A stretch of DNA of 64,000 bases from Escherichia phage vB_EcoM_G9062: sequence record NC_054920.1. The stretch is one strand, 5' to 3'. The notes beneath the pieces are model-generated. The model saw only the letters and a list, made by a program, of their open reading frames with translations, searched no databases and had not been told where the DNA came from. This document shows positions 12,069 through 15,828 of this stretch, piece after piece. Within the stretch, counting starts at the first letter, position 1, and each line of letters begins with the position of its first letter. Made by a program: the position numbers and the translations under genes.

Positions 12069-12137
12069 GTTATCGAGTTGGTGCCATTATATACATCATT
12101 TTCTGATTGTGTTTTGTGTGCTTTCAAAATGAAGAAA

Positions 12138-12151
12138 GGGGCCGAAGCCCC
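12138..12151 (-). terminator. hairpin GGGGCC-ga-AGCCCC downstream of hoc
   Basis: GC stem followed by a T-run on the minus strand. Confidence 0.6.
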
Positions 12152-12157
12152 TTATGA

Positions 12158-13576
12158 TTATGGATAGGTATAGATGATACCAGTTTCTAAAGCAGTTTTA
12201 TGAATGATGTATCCATTACGCGATTCTTGAACATCAACTTCTGGATAGTCTTTCATCATCTTCTGAAGAGTGTAACGATGTAGGTAATATTTACTATCTG
12301 GGTCGTCAGTTTTCCAATCTTTACCTTCTTCGGTCATTTTTTGGATTTCATCCATAACCCACCAACCGCACCAGATATAAGCTGAAGTACGATGTGGAAG
12401 AGGATGAACATAAGGTAGTTCACCTTCTGGTTCTGGAGCAACTTTATCAGTTACCTGAACTTGACCTTCTGCTGTAATAGTTTTGCTATCGTAATCAGTT
12501 GCAGTAACGACAGCAGTAACTTCAATAGTTTGACTTCCAACAGATGAGGTATCGACAGTATATACGTTAGTTGACCCTTCTACAGGAGAAGAATCTTTCT
12601 TCCATGAGTAAGTAATTTGTGCTTCTTCTGGAGCACCCGTAACATTAGCCGTAAATGTAGCCGAAGCATCTTGCTGAACATTAATAGAAGGAGGAGTCAA
12701 TGTAACCTGTGGATTCATTGTCTTCTTATTAACTGTCAATGATACTTCATTAGAAGTAACTTCCTTTTCATTGTAATTTTCAGCAGTTACTTGGGCTACG
12801 CATTTAATTCTTTTTACTCCACTTGTAGTTGGAGTATAGCTAAATGTAGAGTTAGTTTCTCCACCAACTTGTGAATCATCTACATACCACTGATACGTAG
12901 CAGACGCTCCATCAGGTTGAGAAGCTAAGGCAGCAGTAAATTGAACTGGGGTTCCGATTACTCCCGCTGGAGGACTATCAGGAGTTACTGCCAAAGTAGT
13001 TGTCTGCGTCTTTTTATTAACAGTTAGTGACACTTCATTGGAAGTAACTTCCTTTGTATCATAATCTGTCGCGGTTACTTGAGCTACGCACTTAATTGTT
13101 TTAACTCCGCTTGCGTCAGGAGTGTAATTGAATGTAGTGCTAGTTGCTTCGCCCACAGGAGAACCGTCAACGTACCATTGATACGTAGCGTTTGCACCTG
13201 ATGGCTGTGAAGCTAAGGCAGCGGTAAATTCAATTGGAGTTCCAATCACTCCAGCATCAGGGCTACCAGGAGTTACTGCCAAAGTAGTTGTTTGTGTCTT
13301 ATTTTGAACTGTGATAGTTGTACTAATTTCAGCTGTTTCAGGTTCAGATTCTGCAACTTGATTGGTTGCAACTACTTTAATAGTCTTTTGACCGGCAGGT
13401 CCTTTTAGTACATAACTAAAAGTTGCTGACGTTTCTTCCTGTGGAGCGTCGTCTACAGTCCAAGCATATGTAATAGTTCCGCCTCCAGTTTCACCACTGG
13501 GTGTAGCAGTAAACTGCTTAGTTTCATCAATAACCCCTGTCGGTGTTTTAGGAGTTATATCAACTGTAAAAGTCAT
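12158..13576 (-). CDS. hoc: highly immunogenic outer capsid protein Hoc, with four Ig-like domains
   Basis: 472 aa; N-terminal Ig-like domains and C-terminal capsid-binding region as in T4 Hoc (376 aa as recalled); two adjacent ~96-aa domains are ~80% identical. Confidence 0.85.
   Translation of the reverse strand: MTFTVDITPKTPTGVIDETKQFTATPSGETGGGTITYAWTVDDAPQEETSATFSYVLKGPAGQKTIKVVATNQVAESEPETAEISTTITVQNKTQTTTLAVTPGSPDAGVIGTPIEFTAALASQPSGANATYQWYVDGSPVGEATSTTFNYTPDASGVKTIKCVAQVTATDYDTKEVTSNEVSLTVNKKTQTTTLAVTPDSPPAGVIGTPVQFTAALASQPDGASATYQWYVDDSQVGGETNSTFSYTPTTSGVKRIKCVAQVTAENYNEKEVTSNEVSLTVNKKTMNPQVTLTPPSINVQQDASATFTANVTGAPEEAQITYSWKKDSSPVEGSTNVYTVDTSSVGSQTIEVTAVVTATDYDSKTITAEGQVQVTDKVAPEPEGELPYVHPLPHRTSAYIWCGWWVMDEIQKMTEEGKDWKTDDPDSKYYLHRYTLQKMMKDYPEVDVQESRNGYIIHKTALETGIIYTYP
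12722..13009 (-). repeat. Hoc Ig-domain tandem repeat, copy B (residues ~190-285)
   Basis: TQTTTLAVTPDSPPAGVIGTP...EVSLTVNKK, about 80% aa identity to copy A. Confidence 0.8.
13010..13300 (-). repeat. Hoc Ig-domain tandem repeat, copy A (residues ~93-189)
   Basis: KTQTTTLAVTPGSPDAGVIGTP...EVSLTVNKK, repeated directly downstream. Confidence 0.8.
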
Positions 13577-13585
13577 AAGTTATCC

Positions 13586-14266
13586 TTATTTTAATGTTAC
13601 GAAAGAAGAGTTGCGTGTTTCACGAATTAGAACTGATCCGTCACGGTTAATGTAATAAATTAAGCTAAATAAAGTTTGGTGTGCTGACGCATGTTCAAAA
13701 CTAGTTGGGTGAGATTTCCAATCAGGAGTTTCAGCAATCCATTGATAAATCCACCAAGGAACAGTACAGAATCCTGGATTTTTTCCAATCAACTGAAGAT
13801 TCGGGCTAAAGTTTTCCGGAAGAGTAAATACAGACGGCTTTTCAGATTCAATAATCTCAGCTACAGCCTGTTCAAATTTTTCTTCAACAAATGGAGTATC
13901 TTCAATCAAAACATCGGTATTTTCAGGAATTTTATCTGTTTCTACTACTTCAATTTTAATGTCAGATTTAACCGGAGAATCAATCAAAAGTGCTGCTTCT
14001 GGATTGACTTCTTCATCGTCATATTTTAACCCCTCTGCAGCATCAGCAGCATCAATTAAGTCTTTAATAGATAACCCATCAGTCTCCGGCATAGGTTCAC
14101 TAGCGAGCTTCTGGAGAGCTTCTTCAATATCATTAACGATATTATCAAAAGATTTATTCTTTTTGACCTTTATACCAAACTGTTCAGCATATTCAGCTAA
14201 TTTAGCTTTAGCTTCTTTATTATCATCAAGAGCCTTCAGCTCTGCAATATAATCTTTATCTATCAT
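13586..14266 (-). CDS. inh: inhibitor of prohead protease gp21 (Inh)
   Basis: 226 aa, same length and position (next to hoc) as T4 Inh. Confidence 0.85.
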   Translation of the reverse strand: MIDKDYIAELKALDDNKEAKAKLAEYAEQFGIKVKKNKSFDNIVNDIEEALQKLASEPMPETDGLSIKDLIDAADAAEGLKYDDEEVNPEAALLIDSPVKSDIKIEVVETDKIPENTDVLIEDTPFVEEKFEQAVAEIIESEKPSVFTLPENFSPNLQLIGKNPGFCTVPWWIYQWIAETPDWKSHPTSFEHASAHQTLFSLIYYINRDGSVLIRETRNSSFVTLK

Positions 14267-14279
14267 AATATTTCCTCAG

Positions 14280-14287
14280 TATAAATA
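14280..14287 (+). promoter_or_regulatory. late promoter TATAAATA upstream of uvsW
   Basis: Exact TATAAATA 30 nt upstream of the ATG. Confidence 0.65.
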
Positions 14288-14316
14288 TAGATATATTTAT
14301 TACATGGTATTTAGAC

Positions 14317-15828
14317 ATGACTGACATTAAAGTACATTTTTATGATTTTAGTCACGTGAGAATTGATTGCGAAGAAAGTACATTTCATGAACTCCGTGAT
14401 TTCTTTAGCTTTGAAGCTGATGGGTATCGTTTTAATCCGAAGTACAAATATGGCCACTGGGATGGACGAATTCGTCTTTTAGATTATAATCGCCTTCTTC
14501 CATTCGGTTTAGTCGGGCAAATTAAAAAGTTCTGCGATAACTTTGGCTATAAAGCCTGGATTGACCCACAGATTAACGAAAAAGAAGAATTATCAAGAAA
14601 AGATTTTGATGAATGGCTTTCTAAATTAGAAATCTATTCAGGAAATAAAAGAATTGAACCGCATTGGTATCAAAAAGATGCAGTGTTCGAAGGATTAGTT
14701 AATCGTCGTAGAATTCTTAATCTTCCAACATCCGCTGGTAAATCGTTAATTCAAGCTTTGCTTGCGCGATATTATTTGGAAAATTATGAAGGTAAAATTC
14801 TTATCATTGTTCCAACAACTGCTCTAACAACTCAGATGGCTGATGACTTCGTTGACTATCGTTTATTCAGTCATGCAATGATAAAGAAAATTGGTGGCGG
14901 AGCATCAAAAGATGATAAATATAAAAATGATGCACCAGTCGTTGTTGGTACATGGCAAACTGTAGTAAAACAACCGAAAGAATGGTTCTCACAGTTTGGA
15001 ATGATGATGAATGATGAATGCCATCTTGCTACAGGAAAAAGTATTTCATCTATCATATCAGGTTTAAATAACTGCATGTTCAAATTTGGTCTATCTGGTT
15101 CATTACGTGATGGCAAAGCCAATATCATGCAGTATGTTGGAATGTTTGGTGAAATATTTAAGCCAGTAACGACTTCTAAGTTAATGGAAGATGGACAAGT
15201 AACTGAGCTAAAAATTAATAGTATTTTTCTTCGCTATCCCGATGAGTTCACTACTAAATTAAAGGGAAAAACTTATCAAGAAGAAATAAAAATTATTACG
15301 GGGCTTAGTAAAAGAAATAAATGGATCGCTAAATTGGCTATTAAGCTTGCACAAAAAGATGAAAACGCTTTTGTCATGTTTAAACATGTATCACATGGTA
15401 AAGCTATTTTCGATTTAATTAAAAATGAATACGATAAAGTTTATTACGTATCAGGGGAAGTTGATACCGAAACCCGCAATATAATGAAAACCTTAGCTGA
15501 AAATGGTAAAGGAATAATTATAGTAGCTAGTTATGGTGTATTTTCTACTGGTATTTCAGTTAAAAATCTGCATCACGTTGTTTTAGCGCACGGTGTTAAA
15601 TCAAAAATCATTGTATTACAAACAATCGGTCGTGTATTACGTAAGCATGGTTCTAAAACAATCGCAACAGTCTGGGACCTCATAGATGACTGTGGTGTCA
15701 AGCCAAAATCTGCTAATACTAAAAAGAAATATGTTCACTTGAACTATCTTTTAAAACACGGCATTGATCGTATTCAGCGCTACGCAGATGAAAAATTTAA
15801 TTACGTAATGAAAACAGTTAATTTATAA
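14317..15828 (+). CDS. uvsW: UvsW RNA-DNA and DNA helicase
   Basis: 503 aa, SF2 helicase motifs (PTSAGKS Walker A, DECH box), matches T4 UvsW. It follows inh directly with no segE-like ORF between. Confidence 0.93.
   Translation: MTDIKVHFYDFSHVRIDCEESTFHELRDFFSFEADGYRFNPKYKYGHWDGRIRLLDYNRLLPFGLVGQIKKFCDNFGYKAWIDPQINEKEELSRKDFDEWLSKLEIYSGNKRIEPHWYQKDAVFEGLVNRRRILNLPTSAGKSLIQALLARYYLENYEGKILIIVPTTALTTQMADDFVDYRLFSHAMIKKIGGGASKDDKYKNDAPVVVGTWQTVVKQPKEWFSQFGMMMNDECHLATGKSISSIISGLNNCMFKFGLSGSLRDGKANIMQYVGMFGEIFKPVTTSKLMEDGQVTELKINSIFLRYPDEFTTKLKGKTYQEEIKIITGLSKRNKWIAKLAIKLAQKDENAFVMFKHVSHGKAIFDLIKNEYDKVYYVSGEVDTETRNIMKTLAENGKGIIIVASYGVFSTGISVKNLHHVVLAHGVKSKIIVLQTIGRVLRKHGSKTIATVWDLIDDCGVKPKSANTKKKYVHLNYLLKHGIDRIQRYADEKFNYVMKTVNL

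Follow-up and report, generated by a model that had tools for sequence, protein, structure and literature searches.

The Hoc protein of T4-type phages is a monomer located on the gp23* hexamers and is dispensable for growth; it has been used for antigen and enzyme display on T4, and is implicated in phage adherence to mucus. In T4 the C-terminal domain binds the centre of the gp23* hexamers at 155 copies per capsid, and the protein extends outwards as a four-domain fibre 18 nm in length (PMC10385173). Hoc homologues are acidic (pI about 4–5) and combine a conserved C-terminal domain with 1–10 Ig-like domains, with the homologue of Serratia phage Muldoon carrying 10 Ig domains on the conserved capsid-binding domain (PMC10385173). 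An additional Ig-like domain compared to T4 has been noted in Klebsiella phage PMBT63 (PMC13435897), and the Hoc of PNJ-9 was reported to have a missing domain (PMC11853027). Our literature search found no paper on Hoc domain 2 of Tequatrovirus being tandemly duplicated or varying in copy number, only general remarks that the number of domains varies.

The hoc gene described here is located at 12158..13576 on the minus strand of the window, which is the complete stretch of 64,000 nucleotides of Escherichia phage vB_EcoM_G9062 (NC_054920.1) that was analysed. Its open reading frame of 1419 nt encodes a highly immunogenic outer capsid (head decoration) protein of 472 aa, followed by a stop codon. 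The surrounding 25 kb, which are the first 25 kb of the window, are 98.0–98.9% identical to phages UAB_60, G4498, JK23 and PYps5T, reaching 98.7–98.9% for Salmonella phage UAB_60 and Escherichia phage G4498 (Tequatrovirus), while Ptacy1496 was not among the matches listed. Comparison of the window ORFs with the annotated loci of T4, G4498 and D5505 gave the gene order inh-hoc-24.3-24.2-rnlB, as in T4, and hoc thus occupies its conserved position between inh (13586..14266) and 24.3/rnlB, near uvsW (14317..15828). The same gene in T4 (PDB 5vf3, 8t1x and others) also has inh upstream, and 24.3 and rnlB downstream. A phmmer search of PDB sequences matched the window protein to the 376-aa T4 Hoc (5vf3_Z) with an E-value of 1.7e-222, and the capsid-binding domain at the C-terminus (aa 382–472, 12161..12433, minus strand) aligns to the corresponding domain of T4 Hoc in cryo-EM entries of the capsid, being homologous to T4 Hoc residues about 281–376. 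The N-terminal part is a string of Ig-like domains of the PKD/I-set type: in Pfam the PKD family scored 44.8 bits against a cut-off of 23.5, with residues 195–267 as the best stretch, Ig_2, PKD_3 and BiPBP_C also exceeded their cut-offs, and Ig_3 and I-set matched residues 289–373. Like its homologues, the window Hoc is acidic, with a pI of 4.48 compared to 4.74 for T4 Hoc in the same calculation. The assignment of the window protein as a Hoc with one more Ig-like domain than T4 Hoc is supported.

Directly after the hoc stop codon there is a terminator-like GC-rich hairpin with a T-run (12136..12153, minus strand), and at the equivalent position the records of G4498 and D5505 annotate a terminator. 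The late-promoter motif TATAAATA was not found on the minus strand directly upstream of inh-hoc; in the window as a whole this T4 late-promoter core occurs 19 times versus 8.1 ± 2.7 expected, and such an excess is normal in the late-gene region of T4-like phages. The inh and uvsW genes are separated by only about 50 nt (14267..14316) in the window, as they are in G4498, D5505 and APTC-EC-2A, and in T4 and one E. coli-derived contig a GIY-YIG homing-endonuclease gene of the segE type lies between these two genes (L025 1144..1761 and L029 1144..1761). A homing endonuclease so near to hoc could drive co-conversion of hoc in mixed infections, adding to the mosaicism described below. Annotation of the locus is variable, as the records of the G4498 group label hoc only as 'PKD domain protein', 'Hoc-like head decoration' or 'capsid and scaffold protein', and related records often mislabel Hoc and its neighbours: one related protein (P0014) is called 'endonuclease [Shigella sonnei]', and in the APTC-EC-2A record the label uvsW helicase is given to inh, and 'highly immunogenic outer capsid protein' to the 24.3 homologue.

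Tandem Repeats Finder detected a repeat at 12720..13300 with a period of 288, 2.0 copies, 78% matches and a score of 701. The copies correspond to two domain-2 (D2) units on the minus strand, unit 1 or 'type A' (aa 93–188, 13013..13300), which T4 Hoc is without, and unit 2 or 'type B' (aa 189–284, 12725..13012), which is the counterpart of T4 domain 2; they are preceded by Ig-like domain 1 (D1, aa 1–92, 13301..13576) and followed by Ig-like domain 3 (D3, aa 285–381, 12434..12724), both on the same strand. The two D2 units begin with KTQTTTLAVTP and end with EVTSNEVSLTVNK, and their gap-free alignment gives 76/96 identical amino acids (79.2%) and 220/288 identical nucleotides (76%), versus 26–42% identity for all other pairs of Ig domains within the window Hoc (40–42% between D1 and the D2 units). 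When unit 1 was compared with all other 288-nt frames on both strands of the 64-kb window, the mean was 74.5 matches (sd 8.6) and the next-best frame had 118 matches, versus 220 for unit 2. The units are adjacent, in frame, of equal length and each form one predicted beta-sandwich, which is the pattern of a tandem domain duplication, and in the phmmer alignment T4 Hoc residues 93–376 correspond to residues 189–472 of the window Hoc, with unit 1 skipped. An earlier sequence-only reading had described a 472-aa Hoc with two tandem copies about 80% identical, an extra stretch of about 96 aa equal to the difference from T4 Hoc, and an extra Ig-like domain created by tandem duplication; all of this was borne out by the values given here, with T4 Hoc being 376 aa and the repeat units matching whole domains, and the copies are more alike than the other Ig domains of the protein, contrary to the outcome that it had named as refuting. 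The results support the extra domain as a tandem paralogue of domain 2.

An AlphaFold2 model of the window Hoc, built on an alignment of 53 sequences, contains four consecutive beta-sandwich domains over residues 1–378, including D1 and D3, with a pLDDT of about 90. The C-terminal domain is poorly resolved (pLDDT 30–60), and the model was therefore used for the Ig string alone. The best Foldseek matches in the PDB were strings of four Ig domains (Dscam/Dscam1, Sidekick and ICAM-5 D1–D4), and the N-terminal fragment of RB49 Hoc (3shs) was also matched with an E-value of 8.6e-10; it is a linear Ig-like string as in the window, but distant, with 15% identity in the structural alignment, and both RB49 and Muldoon Hoc differ from the window Hoc in domain number. 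A parallel is found in the Hoc proteins of Klebsiella phages Marfa and PMBT63, which, like that of the window, have four Ig-like domains by tandem domain duplication where close relatives have three (the Marfa relatives HMGUkp2 and F48 have a 375-aa Hoc), although overall identity to the window Hoc is only about 48–50%. In the Marfa Hoc (469 aa; L006 2501..3907) it is D3 rather than D2 which is present in two tandem copies, 80% identical to each other, and this event is therefore independent of that in the window, indicating that tandem gain and loss of Ig modules recurs in Hoc evolution. A D3 duplication was also observed in a 470-aa Hoc (L005 2501..3910), with 59% identity between the copies.

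We then looked at the distribution of the two-unit form. The hoc genes of G4498, PYps5T, UAB_60, Ptacy1496 and JK23 are 99.7–99.9% identical to the window hoc over their whole length (99.9% for G4498, UAB_60 and PYps5T, with G4498 differing at 1 nt), and encode essentially the same 472-aa allele. The best 120 protein clusters fall into three length classes, with 82 clusters near 376 aa, 30 near 472 aa and 8 near 568 aa, which are one, two and three 96-aa units, respectively; a four-unit allele (about 664 aa) was not found among these clusters. When 60 of the 677 phage records that matched were sampled at regular intervals, 52 spanned the domain-2 region and two units were present in 22 of these (about 40%), including ime09, phiD1, HP3.2 and the Mosigvirus moskry, for which the GenBank record annotates a repeat_region over the repeat. 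Three-unit Hoc alleles (568 aa; L027, L028 and L029, 2501..4207) were found in UGKSEcP1, UGKSEcP2 and several metagenomic contigs; the architecture is that of the window Hoc, with a type-A first unit but one unit more, in A-C-D or A-B-C arrays. Thus, the comparison of Hoc length with that of relatives, as proposed from the sequence, holds in that the window Hoc is longer than T4 Hoc, but the extra length is not peculiar to the window phage: two-unit alleles are common, alleles with one and with three units occur as well, and the feature is a common allele already present in public records, of a protein known to vary in domain number.

The hoc of moskry (L024 501..1919) has two units and is 90% identical to the window hoc, whereas that of RB69, another Mosigvirus, matches the window hoc over the last 273 nt only (96%); it appears that the genera exchange the part of hoc which encodes the Ig domains, with the capsid-binding domain nearly invariant. 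Among 22 alleles compared, the C-terminal domain hardly varies, with a dN of about 0.005 compared to T4. A seemingly longer hoc in Shigella phage KNP5 (NC_055713.1, L039), spanning 2072 nt, was rejected as it contains an assembly gap of 990 Ns, and the annotated 'Hoc-like head decoration' CDS of this phage is a 3' fragment. In several deposited genomes hoc is split by frameshifts or small indels, such as FriedrichMiescher (1420 nt, 'Hoc part 1/part 2'), UFV05 (1418 nt), G29 (1474 nt, two CDS) and T2 (PV648363, three CDS), which fits with hoc being dispensable when phages are propagated in the laboratory, or with sequencing errors.

Clustering at the DNA level of 36 units from 22 alleles separated four types, A to D. 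Type A, represented by window unit 1, stands first in all of the multi-unit arrays examined, type B is represented by window unit 2, and types C and D also occur. The A-B arrangement is present in the window, G4498, CHD16UKE1, moskry, sb2 and an IMG/VR contig, A-C in phiD1, A-D in ime09, A-B-C in two contigs and A-C-D in UGKSEcP1, and the order of units is collinear in all arrays seen. Single-unit alleles have either an A core (D5505, with 98% nucleotide identity to type A) or a B core (APTC-EC-2A, ESCO58 and RB51), or are mosaics (T4, RB32, PhAPEC2 and HX01). Unit 2 of the window has 99% nucleotide identity to the D2 units of APTC-EC-2A and ESCO58, and 90% to the single D2 unit of T4. As this single mosaic unit of T4 has a B-like core, it is window unit 1 which is absent from T4, in agreement with the phmmer alignment, and the window Hoc differs from T4 Hoc by an added type-A unit upstream.

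The reading we prefer, with a probability of roughly 0.85, is that the window hoc, from a Tequatrovirus close to G4498 and UAB_60, contains old D2-A/D2-B tandem paralogues in an array of variable copy number, which is changed by unequal homologous recombination. The window Hoc would be a fibre on the capsid surface with D1, D2-A, D2-B and D3 in series, followed by the conserved C-terminal domain, and D2-A and D2-B would be old tandem paralogues of a single 96-aa Ig module. In T4-like coliphages this module would form an array of one, two or three units with the types A–D in constant order, and the number of copies would shift when unequal homologous recombination takes place between short stretches that are identical in the units. 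The arrangement of the window would then be the common one, A-B, and the 376-aa T4 Hoc would carry a single mosaic unit with a B-like core.

It is possible, although we consider it the less probable outcome, that the copy-number variation is real but without functional consequence, as neutral turnover in a decoration protein which the phage can do without. In the laboratory Hoc is not essential (PMC10385173, PMC10580926), alleles with one and two units are found within one species, and several records have a frameshifted or split hoc; with a non-essential protein and forms with one, two or three units in near-identical genomes, copy number could be nearly neutral. The pattern of substitutions argues against this, as dN/dS between unit types is 0.13–0.17 with substitutions concentrated in loops, which indicates that each unit is kept functional. 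For units 1 and 2 of the window the Nei-Gojobori method gave dS = 1.09, dN = 0.137 and dN/dS = 0.126, so both units are under purifying selection, and 14/20 amino acid differences between them are outside the beta-strands, which make up 54% of the domain, fitting with a conserved fold with variable loops. Also difficult to reconcile with neutrality are the persistence in other phages of arrays of up to 10 Ig domains (PMC10385173), and the altered mucus persistence caused by single Hoc substitutions (PMC9271167, as cited in PMC11853027).

The longest stretch over which the two units are identical is a run of 25 nt (ACAACTACTTTGGCAGTAACTCCTG), located at 13267..13291 in unit 1 and at 12979..13003 in unit 2, both on the minus strand. 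A single crossover within this run of the window allele is predicted to delete 288 nt, and the hoc gene of ESCO58 (1131 nt, 376 aa) has 0 mismatches to the predicted product, its unit being A-type at positions 5 and 8 and B-type thereafter. The APTC-EC-2A hoc has 2 mismatches to the same product, with the breakpoint inside the 25-nt run, and its unit is likewise A-type at positions 5 and 8, and B-type at each of the 66 informative sites further on; this phage is classified with G4498 in one species, and the 2.5 kb flanking its hoc on each side are 99.8–99.96% identical to those in the window. As ESCO58 is an exact crossover product, copy number changes by homologous recombination, and the alleles differ by whole units with the breakpoint in shared identity, as expected for an array of variable copy number. 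D5505, with an A core and a 3' end that is largely B-type, looks like the complementary loss, albeit with a less clean fit, as 3 mismatches to a single-crossover product remain in its unit. The 25-nt run was also considered as a specially conserved recombination site, but this found no support, as other alleles vary at its synonymous positions and a run of such length is not improbable by a rough estimate. The reverse one-step change cannot yield units which differ by 24%, and the T4-length alleles of ESCO58 and APTC-EC-2A are therefore most simply seen as secondary deletions; judged from the sequences, at least some T4-length alleles would thus most simply be secondary losses from an A-B array, with reintroduction of the array possible by exchange with a relative carrying A-B. 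When clean 'inner' versus 'outer' junction signatures were sought across the 36 units, the states were mixed, and the direction of gain or loss is therefore resolved in the case of ESCO58 and APTC-EC-2A only; together with the mosaicism of many units, the junction states blur a simple history.

The same alleles bear on another explanation, in which the two-unit allele was made from an A-type and a B-type single-unit allele, joined by unequal or illegitimate recombination during co-infection, so that the A/B divergence predates the array. Single units with an A core (D5505) and with a B core (ESCO58, APTC-EC-2A, RB51 and T4) do exist, heavy recombination is found in T4-like phages, the units are mosaic, and there is a short microhomology (AAGACA) at the boundaries of D1 with the unit and of the unit with D3. 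However, ESCO58 with its A-type bases at only positions 5 and 8 is exactly what is expected from a single-crossover deletion of A-B, and the 3' end of window unit 1 and the 5' end of window unit 2 differ from the corresponding ends in D5505 and ESCO58, which makes these single-unit alleles products of the array rather than its parents, and renders such a joining improbable. For the A/B split itself, both duplication in place and joining of diverged alleles could have been the origin, also where the array of old paralogues is accepted.

A recent duplication specific to the lineage, with copies that have barely begun to diverge, is very unlikely, even though the units are adjacent, in frame, of equal length and about 79% identical. 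Among the 22 alleles the median pairwise dS is 0.24 for D1, 0.28 for D3 and 0.20 for the C-terminal part, with maximum values of 0.78, 0.52 and 0.42, respectively. Between units 1 and 2, dS has reached saturation and is about four times the median allelic value for the flanking domains. The units therefore separated much earlier than the sampled hoc alleles typically diverged. Furthermore, the A-B array is shared by numerous independent phages, among them a Mosigvirus, types A and B are each closely matched within other arrays and by single-unit alleles, an identical allele is found elsewhere, and about 40% of the sampled relatives have two units, all of which argues against a recent origin in the window genome. 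The sequence-only reading described the copies as diverging, but the recent origin that it implied is contradicted by the dS of 1.09; with a dN/dS of 0.13, the split is old and both units are maintained. Finally, wrong expansion of the repeat during assembly can practically be dismissed: tandem repeats often cause assembly errors, and the related KNP5 has its 990 Ns across hoc, but here the ORF is intact, the same structure with 0–1 nt differences is present in independently sequenced genomes and in metagenomes, and the units differ at 68/288 positions, so that reads are placed unambiguously.

With regard to function, scaling from the 18-nm four-domain T4 fibre suggests that the extra Ig domain would lengthen the fibre by roughly 4–5 nm. 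The pI values of the two D2 units are 4.4 and 4.6, and the extra unit would add further acidic Ig surface and a second putative glycan- or mucin-binding surface, thereby changing reach, valency and antigenic surface. The putative MUC2-binding motif NEVSLT is present in the last strand of unit 1 (aa 180–185, 13022..13039, minus strand), with a second copy in unit 2 (aa 276–281, 12734..12751, minus strand). In the PNJ-9 Hoc, S183, L184 and T185 were reported to be required for binding to MUC2 (PMC11853027), but as these residues are on the last strand of the fold, the published effect of the mutants could be structural. Effects of the extra domain on adherence or antigenicity, as suggested in the initial description, are plausible.

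What is modestly new here is that the 472-aa and 376-aa alleles are exactly linked by recombination, and that the unit types A–D are ordered; in the light of this, the T4 Hoc of the textbooks may be a shortened form. Taken further, and only tentatively, the domain-2 array might be an adhesin cassette with recombination-driven variation in copy number and sequence, tuning fibre length, valency and surface chemistry in a similar way to the repeats of bacterial adhesins, with the 376-aa T4 Hoc derived, as a shortened mosaic, from an ancestral array of greater length rather than representing the ancestral state. Many natural T4-like phages would have a Hoc fibre which is one or two Ig domains longer than that of T4, with a copy number that can flip by a single crossover between near-identical genomes, and the number of Hoc domains therefore bears on comparisons of therapeutic phages, on serology and on the choice of display scaffolds.
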